NCBI GenBank assembly: GCA_051859245.1
Contig: JBHYGA010000005.1
Coordinates: 512,001-576,000 of the forward strand
Length of the DNA: 64,000 bases
Direction of reading: 5' to 3'
From: Gemmatimonadaceae bacterium
GTDB lineage: Bacteria > Gemmatimonadota > Gemmatimonadetes > Gemmatimonadales > Gemmatimonadaceae
Numbering within the stretch: the stretch's first letter is position 1; every line of letters starts with the position of its first letter. The notes under the pieces were generated by a model. It ran no database searches, was not told the origin of the DNA, and saw nothing but the letters and a program-made list of their open reading frames with translations. The position numbers and the translations under genes were made by a program. Of the stretch, positions 5,971 to 23,522 are shown piece by piece.

Positions 5971-6105
5971 GCGTTTTGGGTTTGAGGGGGGCGGACGCAG
6001 CTCGCGTACTTGGCAACAAACTATCTCGGAAAAAATCGTGGTGTTTTCCACCGTCAAAACGCCAGCGACGTGTGGGTGTACTTGCACGAGCACCGACCAC
6101 GACGC

Positions 6106-6585: not shown

Positions 6586-6704
6586 GCACGATCTCCATTC
6601 GAAGGACACCGAAAATTTCGCAGCGGGGTCTGAGAGCGCCCGCGTCAACATTTGTCGGTGCACGCAAATGAGATCACGCGCATGCACCGACCGTCGATCG
6701 CTCC

Positions 6705-8684
6705 TCAGCGCCGACGCATGATCTGCGGCGTGTCTACAGCACGAGCGCTCGCGTTCGCACCAGTGAGCATTGGAACGTTCGTATCGGGTAACGCTCGCGC
6801 GCGATCACGGCGCAGCTGTTCAAGTTCCGTTGACAGCTCAGCGATGGATGACGGCATGGTGGAGCTTGCGCCAATAAACGCGTCCGCCAAGACACTCTGC
6901 AGGTTGTTGCCAGGGCAAGCCTCAAGAAGCGGCGTCAGTCTCGGCCCGAGCCCACTCACCCGAAACGACACGGCCTTTGCGCTCCCCCGGAACTCACCGA
7001 ATGCAAACGTGAACAACCGCGAGCCTGCGACCTGAAAGGCAAATGACTTGACGGAGGCATTGGTCCCTGTTTTACCGAGCGAGCTAAAGTTGTCGAACTC
7101 AAGCCAGGTCTCAGCCACTGGTGTTCCGCCATCAAAGGAAAACGCCACGGTACCGCTCGCGGTGACAAAACGATCCGTGGCGACCCATGCCACAAACGAC
7201 CCAGTCGACGAGCATACAAAAGTGAGCTCAGGATATTCGGATGAGCCAAACTGGTTTGAAATCTGATTGTCGGAGGGAAGCGTGGTGAATACGATGCCGT
7301 TACCGCTGAGCGACAACCAGTCGTACGCGGTGATTGGACTTTCCCAGGCCACTCCATCAATCGTCGCCACAATGGTGATCGTACCGGTACCGGCCGGAGT
7401 GAAGAGTCCCGCTGGCGTGAACGTGCCTGCCGAAGGATTCGTCGTGCTCCAGGAAACGGGGCGAGAGATCGTGTTCCCATCTGACGTGCGTGCAGTCACC
7501 GAATACTGATAACTGTCGCCAACCTTCACGCGCGCTGTGCCAGTGAGCGTCACACTCGTCACGGCAGATCGAACTTGTATCACGAGCGTGCCAGTACGAC
7601 CCTCGCTGCTCGCAGAGATCGAGGCCGTGCCCGGAGCGACAGCGCTCACCAGCCCAGTGGCGGACACGGTGGCAATGCTGGAATTACTCGTGCCCCACAC
7701 CACGGTGCGGTCTGTCAGCATCGCTCCATTCACGTCGCGTATTGTCGCTGAAAGTTGCGCCGTGGCGCCGGGTGTAAGCGAACTCGCCCCGGAGATCGAA
7801 ACAGTTGCAACGGGCACGGGGAGCACTGTGAGTGTCGCACTACCCGTCTGACCCTCGCTGGTGGCAGAAATGCTTGTCGTACCCGGAGCGACCGTGGTAA
7901 CTCGTCCGCTGGCATCAACCGCGGCGACCGACGTGTTCGATGATGTCCATGCCACCACGCGGCCGTCCAAAGGGCTTCCGTTGGACGATCGCAACGTTGC
8001 CGATGCCGACGTAATCGTGCCCGCGACGACTGATGCCTGCGCGAGCGTCACCGTCACGGAGGCGACAGGCGGCGGCGTCACCCTGAGTGACGCACTCCCC
8101 GTTCGTCCTTCGCTCGTAGCAGTGATCGTCGTTGTTCCGGCGGCGAGCGCGGTGACTGTTCCGGTAGCGTCAACACTTGCCACCGACGGCGCTGACGAAC
8201 TCCATGCTACGCTGCGACCGGTGAGCACGGCGCCATTGTCGGAACGCAGTTCTGCCGTTGCCGACGTGCTGGTACCCGCAACGATCTGTGGGTTCGATAG
8301 ACTCACGGTTACGGTCGCCACAGGAGGCAGTGTCACAGTCAGTGACGCACTTCCGGTTCGTCCTCCGCTCGTCGCCGTGATCGTCGTTGTTCCCGCGGTC
8401 AGTGCTGTCACGGTACCGGAGCCATCAACACTCGCCACTGCTGGCGATGACGAACTCCATGTGACACTGCGGCCACTGAGAACCGTGCCGTTAGCGGCTC
8501 GCAATTCTGCGCTTGCCGACGTGCTGGTACCCGTCACGATTTGTGCGTTCGTAAGCACCACCGTCACCGTGGCCACCGCGGGTGGTGATGGGTTCCCTGG
8601 TGGGGCGACAGGATTGTCAGTACCGCCACCACCACACGCCGTAACGAACAGCAGTGCCGCACCGCACAGTAACGATCGCTTCAT
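6705..8684 (-). CDS. Lipoprotein with 4-5 bacterial Ig-like (Big_2) repeats and a C-terminal VasI/TagO-like domain
   Basis: Signal peptide with lipobox FVTAC, then ~85-aa repeats V.WSSS.P.VASVD..G.VTA..AGTTTITATS.G. C-terminal domain PELTFVC...FDGG...W...F.VSGL..LTPLLEAC. Confidence 0.85.
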   Translation of the reverse strand: MKRSLLCGAALLFVTACGGGGTDNPVAPPGNPSPPAVATVTVVLTNAQIVTGTSTSASAELRAANGTVLSGRSVTWSSSSPAVASVDGSGTVTALTAGTTTITATSGGRTGSASLTVTLPPVATVTVSLSNPQIVAGTSTSATAELRSDNGAVLTGRSVAWSSSAPSVASVDATGTVTALAAGTTTITATSEGRTGSASLRVTPPPVASVTVTLAQASVVAGTITSASATLRSSNGSPLDGRVVAWTSSNTSVAAVDASGRVTTVAPGTTSISATSEGQTGSATLTVLPVPVATVSISGASSLTPGATAQLSATIRDVNGAMLTDRTVVWGTSNSSIATVSATGLVSAVAPGTASISASSEGRTGTLVIQVRSAVTSVTLTGTARVKVGDSYQYSVTARTSDGNTISRPVSWSTTNPSAGTFTPAGLFTPAGTGTITIVATIDGVAWESPITAYDWLSLSGNGIVFTTLPSDNQISNQFGSSEYPELTFVCSSTGSFVAWVATDRFVTASGTVAFSFDGGTPVAETWLEFDNFSSLGKTGTNASVKSFAFQVAGSRLFTFAFGEFRGSAKAVSFRVSGLGPRLTPLLEACPGNNLQSVLADAFIGASSTMPSSIAELSTELEQLRRDRARALPDTNVPMLTGANASARAVDTPQIMRRR

Positions 8685-8762: not shown

Positions 8763-11093
8763 CTACATGTTGAGCGCCGAGCGCAATCGATGAATGCGCT
8801 CCCGCAGCGCGACATGCATTGTTGCTGGCGCGATCACTTCGGCGTCTCCGCAGTACTGAAAAACGTGGCGCACTGCCCACTCCGTGTCAGCGAGTGGATG
8901 CGATACCGTGAGTGACCCATCGTCAGCGAGCGCGACTCCTTCCCGTTCGGCAATCCATCGGGCGATAGTTGGCGAGTAGCGAACCACGAGCGCGGCGTGC
9001 ACACCGTTCATGAAGGCGCGGCCGCGTTGAACAACAGCATCGATAGAGAAGCCGTCAGGAATGACGTACTGTTCGCCGGTTTTCTGTGCTTCGAGCACGC
9101 GATCAAGTCTGAACAGGCGTAGCTGCTGTGCCCGTCTGCAGTGGGCCACCATGTACAGACACGCTCCGCTTGCAAGAATCGCATAGGGTTCGACCTCGCG
9201 CGTTTCAGCGACATTGGCGCTTGACTTATGGTAGTGAATTGTGAGCACTTGCCGCTGCTGCAGCGCCAACCGCACTGTGGCCAGCGTAGCCAGGTTGCCC
9301 ACATCACCAGCCGATACCGCAAATCGATCGACGATCGGGTCGTTTCCAATCGCAACCACAACGCGTTCGAGTCTCGCCCGCGCCCGTTCCAGTACGGCGT
9401 GCTCGTTTGGGGTGCGCAAATGCTTGAGCACCGAAAGGCCGAGTGTGATCGCACAGACTTCCGTTGCGACGAGGCGCATGGGCCGCCTGAACGCTGTTGT
9501 GACAGCGGAAATCGTTTCGCGGTCGATGAAGAGTTGCACGCCCTCCACAAATCCGCCCGGTGTGTCATAACGAGCGACCAGCGCAAAGACATCACTGCGC
9601 AGCGTGTCCGCATCGATACCCGTGCGTTGCACGAGATCCTGTATAGCATGCGAATCACCGCTCGCGAGCAGTGGCATCGTTTGCAGGATCCGCCGTAACT
9701 GCGCGGCTGCTGTTTCCGTTACGCGTGCTACTCGCGCGGCCGGTTTGGTGAGCACTGGTGCGAGTGCGGGCGCCTGTGTCCCCAGCGCCGCTGCCTGCGC
9801 CGCACCGGTCTCAACAGACGTTGCCAAACGTTCGAGTGCGTGGCGCACGCCGTCTACAAGGCTGGTCGGCGACTCGGGAATCGCGTCACCGGCGAGCGCG
9901 AGCAACCAACGAATAAAGGCATCTTCTCGTCGAACGGAGAAGCGGCGACGTTCGGTACCGTCGGCGGCGGGCGGCAGTGTTTCCCCCAGCTGCAACGCGG
10001 CGCGTGCCGCGTCATCGTCTGCGCGAAAACGCACGATCACCTCGAGCGGCGGGTCTTCACCAAGCTCCCACGCCTGTCGCGACGCCGCGTGCTCGCGCAA
10101 GCGAAAGTCTGACGGCACGTCGAAGTCTGGCGTTTGTGCCTGCTTCGTGTTCAGCTGCGGCACACGGATACGATTCAGTCGAAAGTTCCGGAGTGCCGCC
10201 GCGTCGACATCTCTCGCCACGAGATACCAGTGACCGCTCTGAAAGAAGAGCCCCCACGGTTCGACCGCACGTTCACGCACCTCATTTCGACCGAAGGTGT
10301 GATACTCGAAACGCACGCGTTTCCGTCGCTGCATCGCGTCTGCGAGCGCCGCAAAAACTGCCGCGTCATGCTGCGCCGCATCATGCTGCACACGCGGTAC
10401 TCCGCTGCTCACGTGCACCGCGCCTTGCTGCTGTTCGCTGCCCGTTGGTCCCACCGGCAGATCGAACGCGAGCTTCCTGAGCGCGCGCGACGCTTCCGCA
10501 GCGAGCATTGGATCACCGAGCTCACGGGCACAGGCCGCAGCATCAACGATGGCCTGGAGCTCGTCGGGCTCGAAGGCCAACGTGGCCAACGCAGCGTACC
10601 CATAACCTGCAATCGCACGCGCACGCTCGGCGGTAGAGCCCAGCGTTTGCTGCGTTACGGTTTGCGTTGAAGCCTCTGGCGCAACCAGCACAAGATACGG
10701 CAGGTAGAAATCCGTGCGCCGCAAGCGATACGCGCCTTCCTCATTGTCGTCGTGGTCAGCAACAGTTTCGATGGGTATGCCTAGTGCGCGCAGTTCGTCC
10801 TTGTCGCGTTCGAACATGCGTTTGGTACTGTCGCGTCGTCGCTTGATCTCGGCGAGCTGTGTCGGATCGTTTGTGCCAGCCACATCGGGCCATTCGTACG
10901 CCGGCACCTCGGGTGCGAGCTGCTCGAAGGTGACTTCCTTGCGACGCGCGAGAAGAGCGGCCACCAGATCCACCCATCGCTGTAGTTTCGCGTTGCCCGC
11001 GCTGGCCGGTGGCAACTCCAAGTCGTCGGCAGCTTCGTCAGCGCTGTTGTGTTCGCGAGCCGTCGCGGAGGATCCGGGTTGTGTGGACATCAT
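8763..11093 (-). CDS. PafBC-like fused double HTH-WYL-WCX transcriptional regulator
   Basis: PafB-like half: KRMFERDKDELRALGIPI, VEPWGL, GHWYLVARD, RNFRLNRI. PafC-like half: FRRPMRL, VEPYAI, LRLFRLDRV, V.QYCGDAEVIAP. Start MMSTQP at 11093 is inferred. Confidence 0.9.
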   Translation of the reverse strand: MMSTQPGSSATAREHNSADEAADDLELPPASAGNAKLQRWVDLVAALLARRKEVTFEQLAPEVPAYEWPDVAGTNDPTQLAEIKRRRDSTKRMFERDKDELRALGIPIETVADHDDNEEGAYRLRRTDFYLPYLVLVAPEASTQTVTQQTLGSTAERARAIAGYGYAALATLAFEPDELQAIVDAAACARELGDPMLAAEASRALRKLAFDLPVGPTGSEQQQGAVHVSSGVPRVQHDAAQHDAAVFAALADAMQRRKRVRFEYHTFGRNEVRERAVEPWGLFFQSGHWYLVARDVDAAALRNFRLNRIRVPQLNTKQAQTPDFDVPSDFRLREHAASRQAWELGEDPPLEVIVRFRADDDAARAALQLGETLPPAADGTERRRFSVRREDAFIRWLLALAGDAIPESPTSLVDGVRHALERLATSVETGAAQAAALGTQAPALAPVLTKPAARVARVTETAAAQLRRILQTMPLLASGDSHAIQDLVQRTGIDADTLRSDVFALVARYDTPGGFVEGVQLFIDRETISAVTTAFRRPMRLVATEVCAITLGLSVLKHLRTPNEHAVLERARARLERVVVAIGNDPIVDRFAVSAGDVGNLATLATVRLALQQRQVLTIHYHKSSANVAETREVEPYAILASGACLYMVAHCRRAQQLRLFRLDRVLEAQKTGEQYVIPDGFSIDAVVQRGRAFMNGVHAALVVRYSPTIARWIAEREGVALADDGSLTVSHPLADTEWAVRHVFQYCGDAEVIAPATMHVALRERIHRLRSALNM

Positions 11094-11188
11094 CGTGTAT
11101 TGTCGGCGGTTGCCTGCATTCGAGCGCCCCGTTTGGTGCGTGCGAGCCGGGTCAGGGAAGGGATCGCACATGACCCGAACAGAAAACG

Positions 11189-11210
11189 AAGGTACGGTCG
11201 AGCTCTGACA
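11189..11210 (-). promoter_or_regulatory. PafBC-type promoter motif upstream of the PafBC-like gene (possible autoregulation)
   Basis: Minus strand TGTCAG-agctcgaccg-TA-cct-T, about 95 nt upstream of the inferred start. Confidence 0.65.
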
Positions 11211-11389
11211 GTGGCCTGCGAGCCTCAGGCCGTAGCCCCGGTTTGGCTGTGGGTAGCCAAGTGCGCAACAGATGCTTATCGATCGCCAAGTCAGACGCGG
11301 GCTAGGCAACCGACACACCGCGAGCCTGCCGCAATCGGACTGCTTCGTGTTTAGGCTTGGCGGCAAAACTTCGCTTCGTCTGCCTGATA

Positions 11390-11485
11390 TGCAATCACCG
11401 ATTCCAAGGTGCTTACCTTAAGTAGGTGTTTACGGAACCCGGTGCATCGCAATAGAGTGGCCGTCAGCATCATGTGTCGTTATGA
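11390..11485 (-). mobile_element. Truncated/degenerate attC site after the RNase H-like gene
   Basis: R''-like TCATAAC (11485-11479) contains the stop codon and is 1 mismatch from the complement of this cassette's start GTTGTGA. An internal hairpin 11390-11405/11434-11451 follows. No L'/R' arm found. Confidence 0.5.
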
Positions 11486-12094
11486 CTCTGCCGAACGAAC
11501 GACAAGGCAAGGCTGTGAGAGGATCTCTAGGTCACGGCTCCAGCCTGTTGCAAGCATGGCTGCGCCAATTAGGGCGAGAGGAAGCTCGCAGGTAACGTCT
11601 GAGGTGGGGGCGCCACCAGCTGTGCGCTTGAGAAAGCCGTTCACGGCGATCATTGCATCATCGCTATGATTCGCTCCCTTCGCTCCGCCCGAAACAAACC
11701 CCTCCCAGAAAAGCACGCCTTCGTTGGCTTCATTGAAGAGGCGCCAGTCTATGAATCCCGGGGCCGCGTCGTGGAGTTCACGAATCCTTCGCAGGATCCA
11801 AGTGACTTGGGTCAGCCCTGTAGCAAGCGCAGCGGCCCCGGCGCCTGCGGACCAAGGTCGATTGCCCTCGCCCGTGCGCGCCGCGGTGAGGCCGATGGGG
11901 TCACAAGAAACTGGCACGAAGAGGGGGCACTCGAAGCCGAGTGCGACCTTTTGCCCCGAGGTCAGCGAACTCGCAACGGCGCCGGCCAGCGTTTCAGGAT
12001 CAGAACCTGTCTGCCAACCGCTACCGACGCGCCAGCCGGCCCACCCGAAGCGGCCCGTTCGCACCGAGCCGATATCTGCGCAAGCTATAAGCAG
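11480..12094 (-). CDS. DUF429-like RNase H-fold putative nuclease, CTG start; cassette gene
   Basis: The frame extends to CTG at 12094 with a perfect SD TAAGGAG 8 nt upstream, giving MLIACADIGS. Also ALGFECPLFVP, LFWEGFVSG and HSDDA (acidic residue pattern). Confidence 0.65.
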   Translation of the reverse strand: MLIACADIGSVRTGRFGWAGWRVGSGWQTGSDPETLAGAVASSLTSGQKVALGFECPLFVPVSCDPIGLTAARTGEGNRPWSAGAGAAALATGLTQVTWILRRIRELHDAAPGFIDWRLFNEANEGVLFWEGFVSGGAKGANHSDDAMIAVNGFLKRTAGGAPTSDVTCELPLALIGAAMLATGWSRDLEILSQPCLVVRSAES

Positions 12095-12112
12095 CTCGGT
12101 GTCTCCTTATTG

Positions 12113-12252
12113 TCACAACCCTCGCGTTCTGCAGCGAACGCCCACACGGAAGCAAGCGGGGCGTTCGCACTTTCCTTTCAGACTACAGCGAACGCACCGC
12201 GATCGCTACACGGGTCTTCGCCGCGTTTGACTGCAGCAACGCAAGGTTAGCC
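12113..12252 (-). mobile_element. Integron attC recombination site (140 bp)
   Basis: R'' GGCTAAC-5 nt-L'' GTTGCTGC ... L' GCAGAAC-6 nt-R' GTTGTGA. Two extrahelical bases lie 6 bp apart (GTT-G-CTGCAG-T-CAAACGC vs GCGTTCG-CTGCAG-AAC). Inner stem 12156-12168/12188-12200. The G-T wobble forms on the bottom (+) strand. Confidence 0.88.
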
Positions 12253-12398: not shown

Positions 12399-13373
12399 CT
12401 ATCTTCCCGTGTTCACTGTGCGTGCTCGTGCGGGGCTACGTGGATTCTTTCTGGATAGTCGCACTCGCGTGCAGACTACTCGACCATCCGCGACTACATC
12501 CTCCCGACGATCCCTTCGACTCACTCGCAAGCAACCCACCTCAGGGAATCGCATAGCGATAAGGATTGAGGCGAGCACGTGCGGCTTCGGACCCATGGGG
12601 ATCAAGTTGACATCGGCAGAGCGTCGATGCGGATCAATGGTCTCGGCAAGATACCGAAATGCCTGTTCTACGCTTGTCAGCGGAAGCCCGAAGGAGCGCG
12701 CAGCTTGAGACACGATTTCTCGATTCTCCTCCTGAACTCGCGCGGCGTATCCATCGGGGGCGTCCTGCTCTGCAAAGAATGAGTAGATCAGATCAGGCTC
12801 CATCTGGTCTAGAACACAGAGGGATGCCAGACTGTCAAAGCCGAGGCCGATGATCGCCACTGACCGATTGTGCGCAAGCGCTCCTCCTTCGCAGCCCGGA
12901 ATGCACAGTACATTGTCAATGACCATAGGCGGAAGAGTAGTCTGGTGTCTTCCCACGGCGTAAACGAAGTCGATGTCGACGGTTTCAAGAGCACTTGCAA
13001 CTCGAAACCAATTCAGAACCGCTGCGTACCAGAGACGCGACATCGCACTGTAGTCAACCAAGATCTTGAGCGCGGACTTGGCGTTAGACTCTGCGTCTCT
13101 CAAGCACGAATAGATGGCGATATCGTCACTTCCTGCTATGACCTTCGGAAGTACGCCAAAAGCACTGCGAAAAAACTCGTCGTTTGTCTTGCGGACGATA
13201 TCGTCGGCAACCGTGGAAAAGCCGACTACTGAGATCTTTCCGAGACGCGCAGCTTCCAGCTTGCCGGCGATAAACGATGCGCGGACCTCATACCCACTCG
13301 CGAAAATGCTGGCGTCGTAACTTCCGGCTTGCACTGCGGCAAGGTCAGAGTCCTCGATGCTATCAATCAACAT
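12399..13373 (-). CDS. Uncharacterised protein with two Rossmann/CARF-like domains
   Basis: ATG 13373 with GGAGG upstream. Halves ASGYEVRA...ILVDYSAMSR and GLGFD...LIPMGPKPHVLAS. Overlaps the ATPase stop by 11 nt. Confidence 0.65.
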   Translation of the reverse strand: MLIDSIEDSDLAAVQAGSYDASIFASGYEVRASFIAGKLEAARLGKISVVGFSTVADDIVRKTNDEFFRSAFGVLPKVIAGSDDIAIYSCLRDAESNAKSALKILVDYSAMSRLWYAAVLNWFRVASALETVDIDFVYAVGRHQTTLPPMVIDNVLCIPGCEGGALAHNRSVAIIGLGFDSLASLCVLDQMEPDLIYSFFAEQDAPDGYAARVQEENREIVSQAARSFGLPLTSVEQAFRYLAETIDPHRRSADVNLIPMGPKPHVLASILIAMRFPEVGCLRVSRRDRREDVVADGRVVCTRVRLSRKNPRSPARARTVNTGR

Positions 13374-15189
13374 GAGAATCGTCGCCTCCGAACAAGTCGC
13401 TCTGCTCGACAAGGCGTGCGGCGCGTTCTTCTTTCGAGGCAGACTGATATGCGAGAATCCAAGTCAAGCTTCGCGCGCGTCCGCGTCTAGGTAGTATGCG
13501 AAAGTGTGGCGCGAGAACGTACGCTAGATGAAACGTACCGCTGCGAATTGGCATCTGATCCGGATTGCTTTGGCCAGTGTTTGGGAAGAGTAGTCCCAGA
13601 CCGACAGCGCGTTCGATGAGCTTCCAGTGTTCGCTGCTTACCGATGCATCGACGATAAAGCTCGAGATCTGGTCCGTGCTTATGGGGCGGTTGTGCAGTG
13701 AGTCGCGCATGAATGAACCGACACGCTCAATGAATGTGAAGAGTTCCGGGCCAACCTCCGGCTCGCTTTGGATTCTTGAGAGGGTAGTAGTGGAGAACGC
13801 GATCAGGTTTCTTGTTTGGTTCGCCTGCGTTATGGACTTAATCCTTCTTCCGTCTCGCCAGCGTTCCTCAACCAAGAAGCTGTTAATGATCCTGATGAGT
13901 CTCCGTGGATTTGCGTCGCCGCACCGCACGATCATGCTCGCGCCAGAGTAAACTTTCAACTCATCGCGACCAGTCGTCCTTTGAATTGCCTCGCGGAGCT
14001 GTATCGCGCCATGCATTTTGCGACTGATCTGATTTCTAAACTCGGACGGATTCGGTACAAGACGATCCGCTCTGGCGATTGTTTGCTCATCCGCATGCTT
14101 TCTTAGGAGCTCCCAATTCGCGGAATCTTCATCCCACGATTCACTCTGTGGATCAAGAAGTTCTGAGCGTCCAAAGAGCGCGTTTAAGGTAACTCCCTGA
14201 TACTTCGCGCCTGACGCGGATGCTCGCTTCCGAAATAGCAAGTCAGCGAACTGCCTCCCGTTGTCTTCCTTCACGCCGGAGAAGCCGATTGGATCGCGAT
14301 CGATGTAGACGTATTCAAAATCGTGACCAACATTCAAACCTACTCCAAGATTGGTGTCTTGGGTCAGGTGGTAGTACGGCATGGTCGTAATCTTGAAGTG
14401 CAGATTGCCACTGTTGCTTCGAAGATACGAGTTAAGGATTCGCTGGTGTTCGAGTCCCAAGAACTCCGCCTCGTCGAGGCATAGTAACCATGAGCAGTCT
14501 GCAGGCAGTTGCAAAGCTACGGCACTTAGTGCGATCGCCCTGCGCAGCGGCGTGAAGAGAGGTAGGTCAAAGCCAATTCCTGCTGGCTCCTCCGCTTCAC
14601 GAAGAGATCCGGTCGCACGTACCCTCACCAATTGCTGCTGCTTCTGATGCTCACTTGCTTCGATTTGTGCTTGTAGCGCGCGAATACTCTCTAATGGCGG
14701 GAACTCCGGCATCCATGCCACGCAAAGCTGCCCGACTATGTGCCCCTCAAGACGAGCCGCTTCACCACGATCAGAGGAGTATCTGTCTAGGCAGCTACGC
14801 AGGGTGACGAGGAACGCCAAGCAGCTCGCGACGTTTAGCCGCCACTGGAAGAACGACTCCAGCTCGACTTCCGTTTGCCACGTCTTGTTTTTGAGTCCAC
14901 CAACCCACTCAAGGCTCGTTGGCAGATAGATGCCGATGAACGCTCTCGACTGGATTGCGCTCTTAGCGCGCGGATTTTCGAATCTGGACAGATGATCATG
15001 TGAGAGCATCTTCGCCAGCACAGTCTTGCCCGATCCGCGGGCGCCAAGAACGATATGGTTTTTCGGAGAAAGCAACCGCCAGAACGACCTCGTGTCGACA
15101 AAGGTGGCGACAACCTCATCGCGCGTCAGGTTTCTTGCGTTTTCTATCTCGAAAAGATCTCGCCGGAAGTCGCTGCTTGTCTCAACCAT
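13363..15189 (-). CDS. ORC/CDC6-like STAND P-loop ATPase with C-terminal winged-helix-like region
   Basis: N-terminal FEIENAR, Walker A GARGSGKT, Walker B LLCLDEAE, NPRRLIRI, C-terminal LIERAVGLGLL...FHLAYVLAPHFRI. Confidence 0.8.
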   Translation of the reverse strand: MVETSSDFRRDLFEIENARNLTRDEVVATFVDTRSFWRLLSPKNHIVLGARGSGKTVLAKMLSHDHLSRFENPRAKSAIQSRAFIGIYLPTSLEWVGGLKNKTWQTEVELESFFQWRLNVASCLAFLVTLRSCLDRYSSDRGEAARLEGHIVGQLCVAWMPEFPPLESIRALQAQIEASEHQKQQQLVRVRATGSLREAEEPAGIGFDLPLFTPLRRAIALSAVALQLPADCSWLLCLDEAEFLGLEHQRILNSYLRSNSGNLHFKITTMPYYHLTQDTNLGVGLNVGHDFEYVYIDRDPIGFSGVKEDNGRQFADLLFRKRASASGAKYQGVTLNALFGRSELLDPQSESWDEDSANWELLRKHADEQTIARADRLVPNPSEFRNQISRKMHGAIQLREAIQRTTGRDELKVYSGASMIVRCGDANPRRLIRIINSFLVEERWRDGRRIKSITQANQTRNLIAFSTTTLSRIQSEPEVGPELFTFIERVGSFMRDSLHNRPISTDQISSFIVDASVSSEHWKLIERAVGLGLLFPNTGQSNPDQMPIRSGTFHLAYVLAPHFRILPRRGRARSLTWILAYQSASKEERAARLVEQSDLFGGDDSHVD

Positions 15190-15194
15190 GTTTG

Positions 15195-16418
15195 CTAATT
15201 GAAAAGGAGAACGATGTCTTCTGGTGTATCTCCGTGCGTCCGAAAATCGAAGTGCTTTTCTATGTCGCGAAGAACCTGTAGGATCGTCTCAGCCGGTAAG
15301 TATTTGAGGTCGGAGCATTCGGCGACGATTTCATGCCAGCTGCAGTAAGCCTTGGGTCCCCTTCTAGCGTTAATGATGGGTGAGACAAGGGACCGGAGTT
15401 CGGAGATTGTGTCGTGTTTGCCGAATGGGCGCCGATGCTCGATGCCGTGATGAATCCGACTTTTTTGCCAGCCATTGGAGAACAGATACGACCAGCTCTC
15501 CACGGTCCCGCAAATCCGCCCCGACCTCGTTCGGCCATCAACCGCAATCACGTGAAACTGATTTGCGACGATGCCACTCCACCTGGTGCTGATCAGAGCA
15601 GAGAGACTTCCTGAGCCTAGGATCGCCAGCGGTGGGTATGGTGTTGTCGCGTACGTATTGAAGTGTGGCTTGTGCTTGTGACCATGAACGAGTAGATCGA
15701 TCTCGTGGCGCCCGAGCATCTTTAATAGCGCGTCAGAATTGACCATCAGACTAAAGTCTGGCGAATCAGGCGCAGGATCCGAGTACTGCACCGGATGATG
15801 ATGCACCAAGAACACTCTCAGTTGTCCATTGGCCGGCGGACGCGCGGACAGCAGTCGGTCTAGTTCTTCGAGCGACTTTGTAGAAATGCTACCGTGGTGT
15901 GGCTTCGTATCGGGATTGTCGTTCCATGATGAGTTGTGAGCGAAGAGTACCGCGTGTTCGTCCTCCCAAAAGCCGAGGTACGGTTCATCAACCAAGCTCG
16001 TCGAACTCTTCGAAATACATCTAGACAAAACTTGACTGGTTCGGGTTAGCGGAACGTACCGCTGCGCCGCTCCTAGTCCGGTCTTGTCATCAGGATATTG
16101 AGAGAACGACGTCCAGTTTACATCGTGATTCCCAGGGACAAATGCAATTCTCTCTTCGGCGACTCCTAGTGCTTCCGCGATCTCTAGCAGAAACTCTGAC
16201 GCGAGTACGAATTCATCCGGTTGGGCTTTGTTGCTCACGTCACCAGGGCAGAGTAGATAGTCCGCCCTTATCGTGTTCTCGCGAAGAAATTTGATGAAGG
16301 TCGATCGATAGTTGCTTTCGATCTGATGTGTCGAGGGACTTGGTGACAGATCCTTGGCGCGAGCACCAGTACCGACGTGGAGATCGCTTGCAACTGCCAA
16401 ACGGAGTGGCTTTTTCAT
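15195..16418 (-). CDS. Calcineurin-like metallophosphoesterase with C-terminal extension
   Basis: All five motifs present: SDLH, PGD, GNHD, VHHH, HGHKH. Start MKKPLRLAV at 16418, 10 nt after the MTase stop. Confidence 0.9.
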   Translation of the reverse strand: MKKPLRLAVASDLHVGTGARAKDLSPSPSTHQIESNYRSTFIKFLRENTIRADYLLCPGDVSNKAQPDEFVLASEFLLEIAEALGVAEERIAFVPGNHDVNWTSFSQYPDDKTGLGAAQRYVPLTRTSQVLSRCISKSSTSLVDEPYLGFWEDEHAVLFAHNSSWNDNPDTKPHHGSISTKSLEELDRLLSARPPANGQLRVFLVHHHPVQYSDPAPDSPDFSLMVNSDALLKMLGRHEIDLLVHGHKHKPHFNTYATTPYPPLAILGSGSLSALISTRWSGIVANQFHVIAVDGRTRSGRICGTVESWSYLFSNGWQKSRIHHGIEHRRPFGKHDTISELRSLVSPIINARRGPKAYCSWHEIVAECSDLKYLPAETILQVLRDIEKHFDFRTHGDTPEDIVLLFN

Positions 16419-16428
16419 TGTGCGTTCG

Positions 16429-17250
16429 TCAGCGCTTCGCGATAACAGAGTTTGTGAAGACCAGTTCTGCAGCGCGGCGCCTATGCTTCGCAAAACCAGA
16501 TATGTTTCGCTGGACGAACTTTCGTTCTACATGCCAGCCATTGAACTGCCGCCTTGACTCAGCTGAGTCGGCGTACGATAGGACGAACGTCGCCCCCAAC
16601 GCGTTGATGCAGTGCAGGAGTTCTGACAGACGCTCCAAATCTTCCAAACCGAACGTCGCTGGCCCGTACTGACGAAAGATCCGACGATTCTCAACCGCAT
16701 ACGGCGGATCTAGGTAGACGAGGTCTCCCGATCGTACGTTGTCGCGAACAACGCGTTCAAAGTCGCCACAGACAATCTTGCAGGATCGGAGCCGAACGCT
16801 GCATTGCTGAATCTGTGTAAAGGAGGGCAAACGGCCGGTTCGCGTAGGTGCATAAGGTACGTTGAACTGCCCCTGAAGATTGGTCCTATAGAGTCCATTG
16901 AAGCAAAAGCGATTCAGGTAGACTAGCCTTGCCGCACGTTGCGCGCTTGTAAGATTCGAGTAATCCTGACCTCTCAGTGAGTTGTACGTCTCCCTGGATT
17001 GCGGCAGACGGTCAAGCTCATGAGACACAGCGTCTGGAGTATCTCTTACAGCAACGTATAGATTCGTGAGTTCCTCGTTCGAGTCCGACAGCAGTGCTCG
17101 TTTCGGATCGAGTGCAAAAAATAGACTTGCCGAGCCTGCGAATGGTTCGACGTACCGAACGTGCTGCTCCGCGTTCCAGTAGCGCACTAGTGTGCTTATT
17201 AGGCGTCGCTTGCTGCCCGCCCATCGAAGTATCTGGAGCTCTGACTTCAC
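16429..17250 (-). CDS. Dam-family (D12 class) DNA N6-adenine methyltransferase
   Basis: LRWAGSK, YVEPFAGS, FNGLYRTN..G.FNVPY, VYLDPPY. GTG start. Confidence 0.92.
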   Translation of the reverse strand: MKSELQILRWAGSKRRLISTLVRYWNAEQHVRYVEPFAGSASLFFALDPKRALLSDSNEELTNLYVAVRDTPDAVSHELDRLPQSRETYNSLRGQDYSNLTSAQRAARLVYLNRFCFNGLYRTNLQGQFNVPYAPTRTGRLPSFTQIQQCSVRLRSCKIVCGDFERVVRDNVRSGDLVYLDPPYAVENRRIFRQYGPATFGLEDLERLSELLHCINALGATFVLSYADSAESRRQFNGWHVERKFVQRNISGFAKHRRRAAELVFTNSVIAKR

Positions 17251-17439: not shown

Positions 17440-17988
17440 TCAGGGAGTAGCCGAAACTCTCGCTGGAGGCGCCTGCTGAACTTTGAAGAAGTCCCCCATC
17501 TCGGCGTGAACGATCTCATACGTCTGGACTCGGAAACGCCCAAAGGCGGTCTCCAACTCACCCAGTCTGTCCGCCGAGTTTGAAGCACGCGCGATGGCGA
17601 TGGATGCTTCCCAATCGGCGCGAAGCGCCTGAAGTGCGAAGAGCGCCTCGGTTTGACTTCTCCATCCGACTTCCCATCTAAAGTGAGTACCGATTCCGGT
17701 TAGGATCGCTATCACGGCTGAAGCAGCGGATACAAGGAAGCTCTTGCTGATCGGGAATCCGTAGACAACCGTGTCTGTTGCGAATACGGCAATCAGCGGA
17801 AGTAGTCCGCTCAACACGATTATGCTGACGCTTGAGTACCTGAACCACTTTCGCTTCGTCGTCGATCTGTCACGATAGTAGTCGAGCATGTACTCAAAAC
17901 TCTCAGGCGTGTGAATGTCTGAGAGAAACACGGATGTGCTCAGCTGGGTGAGGTAGCGCTCTATTGTATCGTCAGTTTTTGCTTCCAT
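17440..17988 (-). CDS. DUF4231/SLATT-like two-transmembrane protein
   Basis: YYRDRSTTKRKWFR, two hydrophobic segments, then FRWEVGWRS.TE...L. It is the first gene after the cassette start. Confidence 0.75.
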   Translation of the reverse strand: MEAKTDDTIERYLTQLSTSVFLSDIHTPESFEYMLDYYRDRSTTKRKWFRYSSVSIIVLSGLLPLIAVFATDTVVYGFPISKSFLVSAASAVIAILTGIGTHFRWEVGWRSQTEALFALQALRADWEASIAIARASNSADRLGELETAFGRFRVQTYEIVHAEMGDFFKVQQAPPARVSATP

Positions 17989-18406: not shown

Positions 18407-19861
18407 TCACCCCACCCCCACCAACCCCCGTCTCGACGCCATAACGTGATCCCGCGTCACCGTCCCATCCCCCAGCTCCCGCGCATCTCTCTCGGCCGCG
18501 TCCCTCAACCGCTTCGCCACTGAAATCCGAATCAACACCGGCTGCGCATCACACAACTCATCAAGCAACGCCTTCGCGTCATCACTCCACGGCAGCTCCT
18601 TATGCAGTCTCGCCGGCGTCGCATCGATCTTGTCCATATCCGTACCCAGCGGCAGGATATGAAACAGCGCATCAAACAGCTGATTACACACTTCCTGAAT
18701 CAGATACGTCGCGCCCGAATACCCCATGAACGGCGTGCCCGTATGCCGGCGAATAATCGCCCCAGGAAACGACGCCGGAATGTACATCGCGCGCGACCCA
18801 CTCTCGGCCAGATACATGCGCTCGTTGTACGAACCAAACATGATCAGTGGCGGCGTAGCTTTAATCGCCGCACGCACGGCCTGATTGTCCGGCTTTACAC
18901 CAGGCCTGCGCGCAAAGCTGAAAGTGCAGGGCAGCCCCATCTCCGTTTCAAGGAAATGGCGAATGCCACGCGCGTGCGTTTCGTTCGCCACAATCGCAAA
19001 ACTCGCCGTGCCGAAAAAATCTTGCGTGACCGACCGCCACAAATCCCACAACGGCTTGATGGTGGTGTGCTTTTCTTTTTCAATGAACGGTTCGGGATCT
19101 ACACCCAGCAACTCACCGAGCGTGCGCAAAAACTTGGTGGTGCTATGCAAACCGATTGGTGCCTGCAAATACGGCACATCAAGATCTTCGCACAGCAGGC
19201 GACCAAACTCGCGGTACATGCAGATGTTCACATCAGCATCCACCAACCGCGGCACTTCACTCAAATGCGCGCCGAGCGGGAACACCATGTTGATCTCCGC
19301 GCCAATGCCTTCCACCATGCGGCGCACTTCGGCGAGATCACTCCACGTGTTGAAGTAGCCGTACATGGGCCCGATAATGTTCACGCGCGGCTTGGCGCCG
19401 GGCAAACGCTCCGACTTGTTGGGACGCACACCTTTTTTGAGGCCGTACTCCGTCCACAACCAGTAGATGGCACGGTTCGCAGCCTGCCACTGATCTTCGT
19501 CAATCGTGCGCGGCAGAAAACGCTGAATGTTGGTGCCTTCCGGCGTGACACCACCACCAATCATTTCGGCGATTGAACCGGTCACCACTACGGCCGGCAA
19601 CTCCGGATCAAGCGTGGAGTGCGCGCGTTTCATGGCGGCTTCAGTACCGGTCTGACCAAGCTCTTCTTCGCCGAGTCCGGTCACAACAATGGGCAGTTCG
19701 TGCGGCGGCAGTGCGTCGGTGTAGTGCAGTACCGATGTCACCGGCAGGTTTTCGCAGCCAACCGGCCCGTCAATCACCACCTGCAAACCCTTGATCGCGG
19801 TAAACGCATACACTGCGCCCCAATACCCACCAGCGCGATCAAGATCGAGAATCAATGTCAT
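18407..19861 (-). CDS. bchZ: Chlorophyllide a reductase subunit Z
   Basis: [22 protein letters not shown]-terminal [18 protein letters not shown]. Position after bchY. Confidence 0.97.
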
Positions 19862-21519
19862 ATCATCTGCTCCGCCTGACGCTTCTTATTCAGGCGCGCG
19901 AGGTGGCGTTTGTAGTGTTCACGGAACTCCGGACGGTCCACCGGCACTTCTTCCCATACGCCGGCCGCGTAACCCGAACCTACGTCACCAAAGAAGTTCT
20001 TCATTTCCAGGAAGCGCGCTTTGTTGCCAAGCGCGGCGTTCACAACCGTGGCCAGTGAACCCGCACCAGCCGGGCCCATGAGCGGCCGCGCCGAAATGAG
20101 ATTGGTAAAGTAGAGCGCGGGAATCATCAGCTCTTTTGCTTTCTGCACCACAGGCGTGGTACCAATCGCGAGGTCGGGCTCAAACTCCTGCATGGCCTGC
20201 AGATCATGTTCGAGCGACGCGCGGAACTGCACACGCACACCACGCGCTTCCAGCCAGTCACGATCGGCCATGTTGTACGGCGTGCGCGGGCACGCCGAGC
20301 CTACGTAGCGCACATCGGCGCCGCTCTCAATGAGCAAACGCGCCACCAGCAACTCCGAGCCTTCGTAACCACTCATGGTAATGCGGCCTTTGATGGGCCG
20401 AGATGCAAGCGCACCCTTGATCGCCGGCAGCACGCGATTTTTTGCTTCGTCAATTTTATCGCGCGACACGCCGGCCATTTGCCCGATGTTTTCGAGCCAC
20501 GCTTCGGTACCGTCGTAACCAACCGGCGCTGAACCAACAATCGGTCTGCCCGCCGCTTCAAACTCGCGGAAGCTCGCCGTGTAAAACGGATGAATCGCGG
20601 CCACACCAACACAGTCGAGCGCGGCGTACAGTTCACGCCACTCACGCGTTGGCACAACCGGACCGGCCGCGAGTCCCATGGGCTCGAGCATCATGCCAAT
20701 GCCAACGGGGTCCACCGGAAACATTTCGCCCACCAGTGTGACCGTGGGCTTTTCCGCGCGACCGCCACGTGGTGCCTGCACGGGACCCTGTTCGGCCTCG
20801 AGTCGCGCGTACTTGAGCATGGCGCCGGCGAGCACGTCTTTGGCTTCGGCGTGCGTGGGCACACCAAAACCCGGCACATCAATGCCCACAATGCGCACGC
20901 CGTTGATTTCTTTCGGCAAGATCTGCAGGGGAACGCCTGATGCCGTGGGTACGCACAAGTTGGTAATCACAATTGCATCGTACAGCGCCGGATCGGCCAT
21001 CTCGTGTACGGCGTCGCGAATGTCTTCGAACAACTTGCCGGTCACGAGCGACTCGGAGTTGAACGGCACATACCCAACCGTGCGCCGAGCGCCGTAAAAG
21101 TGCGACGTAAACGTGAGACCGTACACGCAGCACGCACTGCCGCTCAGAATCGTGGCCGTGCGACGCATGCGCAGACCAACTCGCAGCGAACCAAACGCGG
21201 GGCACATGCTCTGCGGCTGATCGTGCGGGCCTTTGGGATAGTCGGCCGCGTAACGGTCGAGCGTTTCGCTCTTGCCCGCCGCACGTGCAGCCGCGCGCAT
21301 TTCGCCTGCACCGGAGTGACAGCCGATGCCGTCTGTTACGGTAGCCGCCACGTTGATGTCTTCCACAATCGGCAGCGCACTGCGCGTGCCCGTGTTTTCG
21401 CCGACTGCAGCCGGCGACGGCGCACACCCAAGCCCACCCGGCGCGTCACCATCATTCGCCATGGGCGTTGCGCCGGCATCGTCGTACGCAACCTCGTTCC
21501 TTCGCACATCAATCGTCAT
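19858..21519 (-). CDS. bchY: Chlorophyllide a reductase subunit Y
   Basis: [41 protein letters not shown]. Confidence 0.97.
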
Positions 21520-21530
21520 GGCGCGCTGCC

Positions 21531-22532
21531 TCAGACGGTGTCGTAGACAACTTCAAGCGTCGACTTGGTCACTTCTTCCTTGCCGCACATATCAAACATC
21601 GTGGCCGGCTGCAGCACCACATCTCGGCCCGTGGTCTCGGCGCTGAACAGATCCAGAATGCCGTCCATGGTGAGCGGCTTGGGACGTACCGGCGGCGCGT
21701 CGGCCACATTGCGCGCGAGCTCTTCAAACAGCGGGCCCCACTCGGTGCCCGGAATGCCAATGATCTCGTAGTTCGCACTCTTGCGACGAATGTCATCGTG
21801 CTGCGGAATCGCGGCGAGCACGGGAATGCCGGCGGCCTTGGCAAACGCGGCCGCTTCACCGGTGCCGTCGTCCTTGTTGATCAAGATGCCGGCCACACCA
21901 ACGTTGCCACCAAGGCGGCGGAAATATTCCACCGCGTTGCACACGTTGTTTGCCACGTACAGCGACTGCATGTCATTGGAGCCAACCACAATCACCTTCT
22001 GACACATGTCGCGCGCGATGGGCAAACCGAATCCGCCGCAGACAACGTCGCCGAGGAAGTCGAGCAGCACAAAGTCAAAGCCCCAGTCGTGGAAGCCGAG
22101 CTTTTCAAGAATCTCGAAGCCGTGAATGATGCCGCGTCCACCGCAGCCGCGACCTACTTCGGGGCCGCCGAGTTCCATGGCAAACACACCGTCGCGAATA
22201 AAACACACGTCGCCAATCTGTACCGCTTCACCGGCGAGTTTTTTCTTGGCGCTCACTTCAATGATCGTGGGGCAGGCTTTGCCACCAAACAACAGTGATG
22301 TGGTGTCGCTCTTGGGATCACACCCAATGAGCAACACCTTCTTGCCCTGCTGCGCCATCATGTACGACAGGTTCGCGAGCGTAAAACTCTTGCCGATACC
22401 GCCCTTGCCATAGATCGCAATAATCTGCGTCTCTTTGGTTACGGGGCCGGTGTGTACCGCCTCTGGTTCGCTGTTCGCTTCGGCGCGCACGTTGTTGTGC
22501 AGTTGGTGCAGGGCAGTGGCGTTGTCACTCAT
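21531..22532 (-). CDS. bchX: Chlorophyllide a reductase iron protein subunit X
   Basis: NifH-like YGKGGIGKS, GCDPKSD, GRGCGGRG, DFLGDVVCGGF. Confidence 0.97.
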   Translation of the reverse strand: MSDNATALHQLHNNVRAEANSEPEAVHTGPVTKETQIIAIYGKGGIGKSFTLANLSYMMAQQGKKVLLIGCDPKSDTTSLLFGGKACPTIIEVSAKKKLAGEAVQIGDVCFIRDGVFAMELGGPEVGRGCGGRGIIHGFEILEKLGFHDWGFDFVLLDFLGDVVCGGFGLPIARDMCQKVIVVGSNDMQSLYVANNVCNAVEYFRRLGGNVGVAGILINKDDGTGEAAAFAKAAGIPVLAAIPQHDDIRRKSANYEIIGIPGTEWGPLFEELARNVADAPPVRPKPLTMDGILDLFSAETTGRDVVLQPATMFDMCGKEEVTKSTLEVVYDTV

Positions 22533-23470
22533 GCGACGGAGCTCCAGTCGAGGATCATCTTGACGCAGTTGGGATCGGTGAAAGCGGTGGTGTAAGCCAA
22601 CTCGGCCTGTTCCGCTTTGTGCGTGTGCGTAATCAGCCCATCAAGGTTCAGCTGACCACTATTCGTTAACTCGGCGACCGCTGCGAGATCACCGGGTGCC
22701 CACTGCGCGGCAACAGCCAGTGTTGCTTCGCGCAAAAATGCGGGCGGAAATACAAAACTCACGGGCTCGTGATAAAAACCGGCGAGCACAATCGTGCCGC
22801 CTGGCTTGAGTCGCGAAATGAGTGTGTCGAGCAAACCATTCGCGCCGCTCACTTCCTGAATGCACTGATAACTCGTGCCCAGATCTTCGTCAGGATGCAC
22901 CACGCGATATCCTTCCGCGCCCGTGCTGCGAATGGGATTCACTTCCCACACGGTTGGTGCCGCGCCGCCGAGTACGAGTGTGAGTCGCGCAATGAGTCGG
23001 CCGAGTGCACCGTGTCCAACGATTAGATCAGGCAGCGCACGTTTGCCAACACCAAGTGCGTGATACGCTGTTGCAGCGAGCGCGAGCAACACACCGCGTT
23101 CCTGCACGGAGTCAGCGAGTGGTACGGTGCGTGCACCGGGCACCACAACGCGTGCGGCTTGTCCACCAAAGAGTCCGCGTGCGCCTTCAAATCCTTTGGA
23201 GCCGGCAATGAATACCTGCCGCCCAACGGTGCGCCCGGAGGTTGGACCGGCGTGCACGATTTCGCCCACGGCCTCGTAGCCCGGCACGAGCGGGTAGCCG
23301 AGCCCGGGGAAGGGTGGCATTTGCCCAGTATATAGAAGGCGCTCGGTGCCGGTGCTGATACCGGACCACCGGATCGCGACTATGACATCCTCGTCGGCGG
23401 GCGAGACGAGCGACAATCGGCGCAGCGAGAGAGTCTCAGGCTGCTCGAACACTACGGCCAGCGTGTCCAC
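22529..23470 (-). CDS. bchC: 3-hydroxyethyl bacteriochlorophyllide a dehydrogenase
   Basis: WSGISTGTERLL..G.MPPFPG.GYPLVPGYE, ALAATA.HA, C.KMILDWS. Confidence 0.95.
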   Translation of the reverse strand: MDTLAVVFEQPETLSLRRLSLVSPADEDVIVAIRWSGISTGTERLLYTGQMPPFPGLGYPLVPGYEAVGEIVHAGPTSGRTVGRQVFIAGSKGFEGARGLFGGQAARVVVPGARTVPLADSVQERGVLLALAATAYHALGVGKRALPDLIVGHGALGRLIARLTLVLGGAAPTVWEVNPIRSTGAEGYRVVHPDEDLGTSYQCIQEVSGANGLLDTLISRLKPGGTIVLAGFYHEPVSFVFPPAFLREATLAVAAQWAPGDLAAVAELTNSGQLNLDGLITHTHKAEQAELAYTTAFTDPNCVKMILDWSSVA

Positions 23471-23522
23471 TGAACCTCATGGAGCGATCGGAAGGACTAC
23501 GTCCCTGGGGGGACAGACAAAG

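Follow-up and report, generated by a model that had tools for sequence, protein, structure and literature searches.

A candidate anti-phage operon of a Gemmatimonadaceae bacterium that joins a Dam-family methylase, a calcineurin-like phosphoesterase, an ORC/Cdc6-like ATPase and a CARF6-clade protein

Two anti-phage systems built around a metallophosphatase, DS-8 (metallophosphatase-NACHT) and DS-9 (metallophosphatase and HAD), were validated with DefensePredictor, and catalytic mutants of the metallophosphatase lost defence in both cases (PMC13092281). A further system, PUA-Calcineurin-CE-HAD, can provisionally be equated with DS-9 on the common two-gene metallophosphatase and HAD architecture alone. 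In the preprint on this system, the Calcineurin-CE enzyme, whose identification is credited there to Nicastro et al. 2023, acts in vitro on dADP, from which it forms dAMP, and on NAD+, which it cleaves; the trigger is N6-methyl-deoxyadenosine monophosphate (m6-dAMP), freed from Dam-methylated host DNA upon phage-induced degradation, and protection requires host dam (bioRxiv 10.64898/2026.01.15.699771). Here we describe an operon with affinities to these systems in a stretch of 64,000 nucleotides (nt) from a Gemmatimonadaceae bacterium (assembly GCA_051859245.1, contig JBHYGA010000005.1, positions 512,001 to 576,000 of the forward strand), referred to as a whole as the window. The operon encodes a Dam-family DNA methyltransferase (MTase), a calcineurin-like metallophosphoesterase (MPE), an ORC-CDC6-like ATPase and a protein of the CARF6 clade. 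Sequence comparisons support the view that the operon is an autonomous four-gene unit, passed on horizontally and bearing the typical marks of defence systems; by its predicted parts it would be a nucleotide-targeting defence of the Calcineurin-CE type, fitted with an NTPase switch and a ligand sensor, which is experimentally uncharacterised so far as we have checked.

With PUA-Calcineurin-CE-HAD the operon has in common a homologous Calcineurin-CE-type MPE as its effector, 39 of 39 MPEs of the family matching NCBIfam NF053862; a tie to Dam-type methylation, supplied there by host dam and here by an operon Dam that is missing only in a clade from the Enterobacterales, Vibrionales and Alteromonadales; and the logic of a sensor plus a nucleotide-depleting effector with no nuclease encoded, which in the present case is read from the genes. 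The two systems part company in the sensor, a PUA-like domain fused to the effector in the one and a separate tandem-Rossmann CARF6 protein in the other, and also in the partner of the effector, which there is a HAD phosphatase, whereas here it is an ORC/Cdc6-like AAA+ ATPase plus the operon's own methylase. DS-8 likewise couples a metallophosphatase effector to an AAA+/STAND-type NTPase, and both activities are required for defence (PMC13092281). In contrast to the operon, however, with its separate genes and ORC-CDC6-like ATPase, DS-8 is a single fused protein with a NACHT NTPase and comes without a methylase or a CARF protein. At the level of whole systems, PADLOC 2.0.0 and NCBIfam gave zero matches for the ATPase or the MPE, PADLOC likewise gave none for the CARF protein, and a literature search found no description of the four-gene set, in agreement with the first-pass annotation of the window, which had been made from the letters alone and could name no characterised system with this composition; an earlier computational prediction of the set is quite possible.

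Table 1. The four genes of the operon, with positions numbered from the first nucleotide of the window
Feature	Position	Strand	Remarks
Dam-family (D12 class) N6-adenine DNA methyltransferase	16429-17250	-	273 amino acids (aa), GTG start
Calcineurin-like metallophosphoesterase (MPE, Calcineurin-CE-like)	15195-16418	-	407 aa; predicted effector
ORC-CDC6-like AAA+ ATPase (PF24389)	13363-15189	-	608 aa; predicted switch or scaffold
Stand-alone CARF6-clade protein, two tandem Rossmann-like domains	12399-13373	-	324 aa; predicted ligand sensor

Read from the open reading frames (ORFs), the four genes follow one another without interruption on the minus strand from 17250 down to 12399, in the order MTase - MPE - ATPase - CARF-like (Table 1). 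Their spacing is as tight as the first-pass annotation had reported, since a base-by-base reading recovers the 10-nt gap between the TGA of the MTase gene and the ATG of the MPE gene, the 5-nt gap between the TAG of the latter and the ATG of the ATPase gene, and the 11-nt overlap of the ATPase and CARF genes (ATGTTGATTGA). The sequence GGAGG is found 11 nt 5' of the CARF ATG. The MPE ATG at 16418 sits within a longer TTG-start ORF extending to 16493, and the CARF-like ATG at 13373 within an ORF extending to 13412. Taken from this layout, the four genes are probably co-transcribed and translationally coupled. Over the operon (13-17 kb) the G+C fraction is 0.525-0.541, below the values of ~0.61-0.63 in the flanks, which indicates an acquired island. 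For the borders of this island a tRNA search was negative and no convincing flanking repeats were found, promoter- and terminator-like sites occurred at or under the counts expected from shuffled sequence, and an Rfam search returned zero families. GATC is neither depleted nor enriched, with 444 occurrences observed and 438 expected, and its frequency is uninformative.

Of 8000 candidates scored against the ATPase, 356 are relatives at E<=0.001, the nearest of them sharing 63% identity with it, and a scan of species-representative genomes yielded 49 related loci from 14 phyla, whose ORFs were searched by phmmer with the proteins of the window. The MPE is encoded in all 44 loci that offer at least 1300 nt upstream of the ATPase gene and the CARF protein in all 46 with at least 1000 nt downstream; the order MPE-ATPase-CARF is constant across the 49 loci, and both core junctions measure 20 nt or less in 40 of 40 loci in which each core gene is one intact ORF, a count that takes its starts from the longest ORFs and in which overlaps are upper bounds. 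Such recurrence of one arrangement over 49 loci and 14 phyla is more than chance would produce. The same four-gene operon is borne by three plasmids, Cupriavidus p2 and two plasmids of Sinorhizobium meliloti, where the products are annotated as Dam methyltransferase, metallophosphoesterase and two hypothetical proteins. Homologues of the ATPase were found in 0 of 50,697 phage records, and DNA like the Enterobacter or Cedecea versions in 0 of 5,426 complete E. coli genomes.

The genes that flank the core differ between loci. When the products of the four genes nearest the core were compared with PADLOC models in 30 loci (120 proteins in all), 13 loci gave one or more matches at E<=1e-8, a raw count taken without a background control; the matches are to parts of type IIG, type I and type III restriction-modification (R-M) systems, HerA, AbiH, HNH, DpdB, a SIR2/pAgo-like protein and several 'PDC' candidates. 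Pfam matches of 62 neighbour proteins add integrases (L017, L021, L023, L028), a serine recombinase (L044), a relaxase (L005), transposases (L019, L038, L040, L045), HipA (L004, L020) and SymE (L027), and further AbiH, Abi_2, NERD, MmeI and Schlafen/AlbA. With its low-GC island, its patchy distribution over 14 phyla, its mobile and defence-gene neighbours and an MPE that is kin to DS-9A and DS-8, the operon retains the standing of candidate anti-phage module that the first-pass annotation had given it. The proximity of integrases and transposases and the plasmid copies would also suit a module without a defence role, concerned with the maintenance, replication control or epigenetics of mobile elements and pairing an ORC-like initiator with Dam, a pairing to which the function of ORC/Cdc6 proteins as replication initiators lends some colour. 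Such a role strikes us as highly improbable: the invariant MPE of an anti-phage clade and the CARF sensor would have no obvious part in replication, the loci are chromosomal, varied in context and devoid of conserved replicon genes, and the effector gene has been disrupted repeatedly.

The predicted effector was assigned, as were the other products, by comparing Pfam, NCBIfam and PADLOC 2.0.0 profiles with their curated cut-offs. The MPE scores 54.1 bits against PF00149 (cut-off 21.5), and across 39 sequences its motifs D12xH14, G59D60, G96NHD99, H206-208 and G245HKH248 show either no variation or a conservation of 90% or more. Indeed, the catalytic motifs that had been noted in the MTase, the MPE and the ATPase all prove intact and conserved across relatives. 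The best match of the family to NF053862, named 'DS9_1 anti-phage phosphoesterase', has an E value of 4.6e-36, and 35 of the 39 members also match the DS8 model NF053861, so that by profile comparison the nearest curated relatives of the MPE are the validated anti-phage proteins DS-9A and DS-8. The window protein itself reaches 95-96 bits against NF053862, for which the equivalog cut-off is 420, and covers only profile positions 195-475 of 486, that is, the C-terminal catalytic part; a score so far under the cut-off, together with this partial coverage, means that the window MPE is not a DS-9A member. Against NF053861 it scores 26 bits (cut-off 790). It has no N-terminal PUA-like domain, the DxH motif standing already at residue 12, and neither a PUA nor a HAD family was found among the operon proteins with Pfam and NCBIfam.

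What such an enzyme might hydrolyse is indicated by its more distant relatives. In searches of the PDB, the family profile matched best the nucleotide phosphodiesterases Lmo2642 (1.1e-14) and Rv0805 (5.5e-7), then SMPDL3A (5.5e-4), and lower down Mre11/SbcD (E ~2e-3). The first-pass annotation had allowed for either a nuclease or nucleotide depletion; the DS-9A and PDB profile matches favour the second and make the first less likely, so that the activity predicted for the MPE is nucleotide hydrolysis rather than DNA cleavage. The opposite choice would turn the operon into an R-M-like system in which the MPE, as an Mre11/SbcD-type nuclease, cuts unmethylated foreign DNA and the ATPase loads or powers it. 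Calcineurin-like enzymes do include the nucleases Mre11 and SbcD; 11 of the 39 MPEs match the SbcD model TIGR00619 weakly (best E 3.1e-9), Mre11/SbcD appear among the PDB matches as just given, and the PADLOC model 'Effector, Endonuclease' is matched by 34 of the 39, across just ~50 residues. The matches to DS-9A, Lmo2642 and Rv0805 are far stronger, however, a helicase, a translocase and a specificity subunit are all missing from the operon, and neither the MPE nor the ATPase has a PADLOC match to a restriction endonuclease, BREX, DISARM or MADS component. Moreover, the DS-9A-type Calcineurin-CE targets nucleotides (bioRxiv 10.64898/2026.01.15.699771). An R-M-like cutting system is thus an improbable reading of the operon.

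Damaged copies of the operon are also of interest. Lesions were seen in four loci, three of them in the predicted effector gene, which is interrupted in L025 (7273-9881) by a transposase of the IS256/Mutator family (402.9 bits) and split into two ORFs in L021 (8749-9986) and L026 (8773-10007); in L016 (2419-4340) it is the ATPase gene that is split. The repeated disruption of the MPE gene fits a costly, toxin-like effector.

The CARF6 protein is, in our view, the most likely ligand sensor of the operon; it had been given no role in the first-pass annotation, though it is as invariant across the loci as the ATPase. It matches the PADLOC CARF6 model PDLC01912 at 172.6 bits over positions 5-310 of the 312 in the profile, and CARF6 models are matched by every one of 40 aligned relatives (best E 3.5e-165), whereas Pfam gave zero families. 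These models presumably derive from the 2020 CARF classification, in which Makarova and colleagues reportedly defined CARF6. At D107-Y-S109-A-M-S-R113 the protein bears the CARF signature [DN]x[ST]xxx[RK], placed after strand E101-107 in an AlphaFold2 model, and Makarova and colleagues are said to have located this signature, in 2014, after core strand 4. Both D107 and R113 are invariant in 40 sequences, as are G27, E29, R31, W115, Y116 and Y138 and, in the second domain, G261-P-K263. The AlphaFold2 model is confident (predicted local distance difference test score, pLDDT, 93; predicted template-modelling score, pTM, 0.91) and consists of two tandem Rossmann-like (alpha/beta) domains. Foldseek aligned it with the Csm6 CARF domain (8jh1_A, 5fsh_B; probability 1.00, ~148 columns, E ~1e-3) and with Cap4 SAVED (7yia; probability 0.97, 269 columns, E ~1e-3), and scored KaiC and other tandem Rossmann proteins equal to or above these. 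As the fold matches are borderline, the term 'CARF-like' is supported mainly by profile and motif. A search of the ESM Atlas with the protein returned unnamed 'hypothetical' clusters only. At E<=0.001 the CARF6 profile retrieved 2694 cluster representatives, 489 of them at E<=1e-30, and the best 150 all measure 202-346 aa, a length that marks them as stand-alone proteins.

In its Rossmann-like sensor with the [DN]x[ST]xxx[RK] signature the operon recalls the CARF and SAVED effectors of type III CRISPR-Cas and CBASS, the tandem layout being reminiscent of SAVED in particular. Unlike those systems, it has no signal synthase in or beside it, and its sensor is not fused to the effector. This affinity lends itself to a reading in which the operon is an accessory effector for cyclic oligonucleotides made elsewhere in the genome by a type III CRISPR or CBASS system, the CARF6 protein binding cyclic oligoadenylate (cOA) and the methylase being incidental. 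The protein does belong to the CARF superfamily, the CARF6 models sit in the Cas-accessory set of PADLOC, and the fold resembles the cA4-binding Csm6 CARF domain and Cap4 SAVED. Yet the operon and the 120 proteins encoded nearest to the core in 30 loci yielded neither a Cas protein (including Cas10) nor a CD-NTase, the parallel divergence of methylase and ATPase means that the methylase is not incidental, and the module travels alone between 14 phyla; dependence on a signal made in trans is accordingly a very unlikely explanation. A methylated product of DNA degradation, considered below, is the ligand that we prefer for the CARF6 protein.

The ATPase matches PF24389 (ORC-CDC6-like) at 306.9 bits over residues 13-575 of 608 (cut-off 27), and its Walker A motif G49ARGSGKT56 (15022-15045, minus strand), its Walker B motif hhhhDE with D239E240 and its D425xNPRR430 are conserved. 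The structural evidence is thinner. The AlphaFold2 model is of moderate quality (pLDDT 74, pTM 0.53), Foldseek returned 0 matches at E<=0.001, and its top, non-significant matches were Orc5, Orc4, the RADAR protein RdrA (8hr8_H, E 0.031), Cdc6/Orc1, Apaf-1 and CED-4; with the fold search non-significant, the ORC/Cdc6 label rests on the Pfam profile. The family profile found nothing in the PDB (best E 0.85), and the C-terminus (residues 445-600) gave zero usable matches in the ESM Atlas. Of the attributes given to the ATPase in the first-pass annotation, membership of the STAND class was not supported, the score against nSTAND3 being 16.4 bits with a cut-off of 27.2 and involving 25 P-loop residues only. 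A winged helix would be compatible with the predicted secondary structure of residues 455-555, and Foldseek gave no significant match; that the ATPase reads methylation state is a conjecture. More broadly, Pfam, Foldseek and the ESM Atlas search with the C-terminus demonstrated no DNA-binding domain in the protein.

Two further lines of comparison touch the ATPase. Makarova et al. 2014 describe an arginine in Walker A of the AAA+ domain that certain kinase-containing proteins carry in fusion with CARF (PMC4012209). The operon ATPase shares this residue (GxR51GxGKT), retained in at least 95% of 45 relatives, with those ZnR-kinase-AAA+-CARF-wHTH fusions (PMC4012209). Unlike the fusions, the operon has one gene for the ATPase and another for the CARF protein, and it lacks a kinase. 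The match is also weak, the PADLOC model 'CARF6--CARF_STK_AAA' being reached by 3 of 20 relatives of the ATPase with a best E of 1.1e-5. Homology with the AAA+ domain of the fusions may be treated as a lead, and so may the hint in these weak matches that ATPase and CARF6 act together. RADAR, which combines the RdrA ATPase with the RdrB deaminase, offers a second parallel, since in both cases a large AAA+-type ATPase is paired with a nucleotide-pool enzyme, here a predicted one. Unlike the operon, RADAR comes without a methylase or CARF protein and uses another effector chemistry, and the Foldseek match to RdrA is non-significant, as noted.

The methylase scores 144 bits against PF02086 (cut-off 22) and 191.9 bits against TIGR00571 'dam' (cut-off 114.85), while PADLOC gives generic MTase_II matches only. 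Its catalytic DPPY, at residues 181-184, is conserved in 34 aligned relatives, and an AdoMet-binding motif of the FxGxG type is present (E35PFAGSASLFF). The nearest solved structures are those of the GATC methylases DpnM (2dpm, 137 bits) and E. coli Dam (2g1p, 86 bits). At the positions of E. coli Dam K9, Y119, N120, L122, R124 and P134, which we take to be the GATC-contacting residues, the operon enzyme has R, F, N, L, R and P, so that they are mostly retained. Its specificity is likely to be GATC, which we infer rather than report as a result.

A Dam-like MTase was detected by phmmer in 27 of the 36 loci with room on both sides, mostly upstream of the MPE gene and, in L030, L031, L032, L035 and L037, downstream of the CARF gene. 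In a locus from the Holophagales (L002, 7534-8766) the upstream slot is taken by a divergent 410-aa MTase of the D12 class (PF02086 44 bits; PADLOC MTase_II PDLC03257). A methylase is absent within 10 kb of the core in the remaining eight loci, which come from Cedecea, Morganella, Serratia, Enterobacter, Vibrio, Pseudoalteromonas, Shewanella and Paraglaciecola, and in the ATPase tree these form a single clade (Shimodaira-Hasegawa-like approximate likelihood ratio test, SH-aLRT, 97), all of it from the Enterobacterales, Vibrionales or Alteromonadales. Members of these orders typically carry a chromosomal Dam/SeqA/MutH system. Within the clade the ATPase tree disagrees with the host phylogeny, a mismatch that points to movement of the methylase-less form among such hosts. 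The deepest division in the ATPase tree recurs in that of the MTase (1 change, SH-aLRT 100), which identifies the methylase as an old partner and not a recurrent chance neighbour. On the deep branch, L048 (5071-8691) has a Dam-like MTase 2.8 kb upstream of the core, beside a DUF6996/6997/7226 protein and an Abi_2 gene, and L049 (12714-15827) has one 2.3 kb downstream on the opposite strand, beside a DndB/DpdB-like gene; these non-adjacent MTases may be part of a different system or do duty in both.

Methylases are also partners of ATPases in better-known defences. MADS, moreover, contains a calcineurin-like phosphoesterase. The operon nonetheless differs from BREX, DISARM, MADS and classical R-M systems, as its MPE and ATPase have no PADLOC match to PglX, PglZ, BrxC, DrmA or any mad component, it encodes no restriction endonuclease or helicase, and its methylase is of the small D12 Dam type. 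With BREX it has in common the logic of a methylase plus an ORC/Cdc6-type ATPase, BrxC and BrxD being ORC-Cdc6 AAA+ ATPases (PMC12839542). This layout is one of the foundations of the main rival to a CARF-sensed signal, an account close to the idea in the first-pass annotation, according to which the ATPase would bind fully unmethylated, GATC-rich DNA of incoming or runaway-replicating phage as non-self and activate the MPE, with the methylase protecting self and the CARF protein serving as a second input or feedback. It can also draw on the top, although non-significant, fold matches of the ATPase, which are DNA-binding ORC subunits, and on a ParA-system preprint, which proposes dual regulation for a different predicted system, with DNA sensed by an ORC-CDC6-like component and nucleotides by a second sensor (10.64898/2026.10.19.760177). 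The confinement of MTase loss to the Enterobacterales/Vibrionales/Alteromonadales clade fits it equally, since both models predict that the methylase will be lost in Dam-positive hosts. It must contend with the want of a demonstrated DNA-binding domain in the ATPase, it leaves an invariant CARF protein without a necessary role, and phage DNA entering Dam-positive hosts would, it may be argued, mostly be methylated already. Recognition of unmethylated DNA is thus a possible but doubtful account. The two models differ over the toxicity of a methylase-less core in a dam- host and over the binding partners of the CARF protein and the ATPase.

Taken together, these comparisons incline us, by a little more than an even chance, to regard the operon as a mobile defence module that has the MPE as its effector and depends on adenine methylation. 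Its working can be envisaged as follows. The Dam-family MTase would mark the host chromosome with N6-methyladenine, probably at GATC, and in hosts with a Dam of their own the operon could dispense with its methylase. The tandem-Rossmann CARF6 protein would sense a small molecule, preferably a methylated adenine (deoxy)nucleotide or a short oligonucleotide released from marked host DNA that the phage has degraded; this ligand is preferred on the grounds that no cyclase stands alongside and that the nearest characterised relative of the effector answers to m6-dAMP. The ORC/Cdc6-like AAA+ ATPase may act as an ATP-driven switch or an oligomeric scaffold, perhaps touching DNA. The Calcineurin-CE-like MPE, once activated, would hydrolyse free nucleotides (deoxynucleoside di- or triphosphates, dNDP/dNTP, NAD+ or similar), and their depletion would starve phage replication and lead to abortive infection. 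For the component claim that the trigger is a nucleotide derived from the methylome and sensed by CARF, our confidence is low, and we advance it as a tentative proposal. It is enticing to speculate, with slightly less assurance still, that the operon Dam 'barcodes' the chromosome, that CARF6 binds the N6-methyl-(deoxy)adenine nucleotides released from it and that the ATPase then unleashes the MPE on the dNTP/NAD+ pool. In this barcoding version the methylase would have a role other than self-protection, and the ATPase may supply the NTP-to-NDP step that HAD performs in PUA-Calcineurin-CE-HAD.

A number of points weigh against this account. The defence role itself is a prediction from sequence and comparison alone. 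The window MPE scores 96 bits where NF053862 asks for 420 and has neither the PUA domain nor the HAD partner of DS-9A, and the weak SbcD matches of 11 of the 39 MPEs keep a nuclease activity in play. PUA-Calcineurin-CE-HAD needs its HAD enzyme for the dNTP-to-dNDP step (bioRxiv 10.64898/2026.01.15.699771). On the side of the sensor, the fold matches of the CARF model are borderline (E ~1e-3, TMq 0.28-0.34), the CARF profile found nothing in the PDB (best E 0.069), and no fused forms turned up when the CARF and ATPase profiles were used to look for longer proteins, a negative that is weak evidence. The ATPase model is mediocre, its fold search non-significant and its winged helix not demonstrated, and, on the point of GATC specificity, L120 of the MTase varies among relatives. 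The neighbourhood figure of 13 in 30 is, as said, a raw count. Finally, the methylase was lost in one evolutionary event, which leaves a single case (n=1) for the link with Dam-positive hosts and makes the pattern suggestive, not statistical; the eight methylase-less hosts are taken as Dam-positive from the orders to which they belong.

The surroundings of the operon in the window deserve a brief description. Within the low-GC stretch, 190 nt upstream of the methylase gene and on the same strand, lies a gene (17440-17988, minus) for a 182-aa SLATT-domain protein, which scores 56.3 bits against NCBIfam SLATT_1 (cut-off 41) and, below the cut-off, 22 bits against DUF4231. SLATT proteins are predicted membrane effectors in nucleotide-signalling conflict systems (Kaur 2020). 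The gene was considered as a fifth component of the operon and set aside, as no homologue was found in the 49 loci with phmmer or among the nearest neighbours with Pfam; the failure to find homologues in 49 related loci makes it probably a separate cargo. A short way downstream of the operon, an 867-aa protein (8763-11366, minus) has two HTH-WYL-WCX modules, with a PafC-type HTH, two WYL and two WCX domains, and resembles a fused PafBC-like ligand-sensing regulator. Between this WYL gene and the operon, at 11480-12250, two 194-aa ORFs overlap each other on opposite strands, and family profile searches gave zero matches for either. Farther on, a cluster at 1103-8684 encodes an AAA ATPase with AAA_lid_6 (1103-2593), a vWA protein (4002-5651), a TY-Chap3/YbjN-like chaperone (6106-6687) and a protein with five Big_2 repeats (6705-8684), and may represent a further neighbourhood of the conflict type. 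On the other side lies a photosynthesis gene cluster (18407-27976), the defence island being placed directly downstream of bchZ. BchZ is identified by TIGR02014 (792 bits), and the remaining names, which are interpretations of generic Pfam matches, comprise a likely BchY, a NifH-family (BchX-like) protein, a dehydrogenase, an O-methyltransferase, and Mg-chelatase I-like and D-like proteins.

The operon poses the question of what a CARF sensor binds when the cyclase is absent. If it does defend, a widespread system would be added to those already described, with 2694 CARF6 cluster representatives, 356 ATPase relatives and a core present in 14 phyla. The confinement of methylase loss to one gammaproteobacterial clade amounts to a natural experiment that points to adenine methylation as an input. 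If the proposed mechanism is true, it would join DNA methylation, CARF-type ligand sensing and nucleotide-pool depletion, themes that are normally studied separately, would show that the recently reported m6-dAMP alarm signal is also read by a second family of sensors, unrelated to the first, and would establish ORC/Cdc6-like ATPases as switches in immunity. Should the barcoding version prove correct, the CARF6 protein would be the first CARF-family sensor for a product of DNA degradation instead of a synthesised cyclic oligonucleotide, raising the intriguing possibility that methylome-derived alarm signals are a general principle of immunity, reached independently by way of PUA- and CARF-based sensors.

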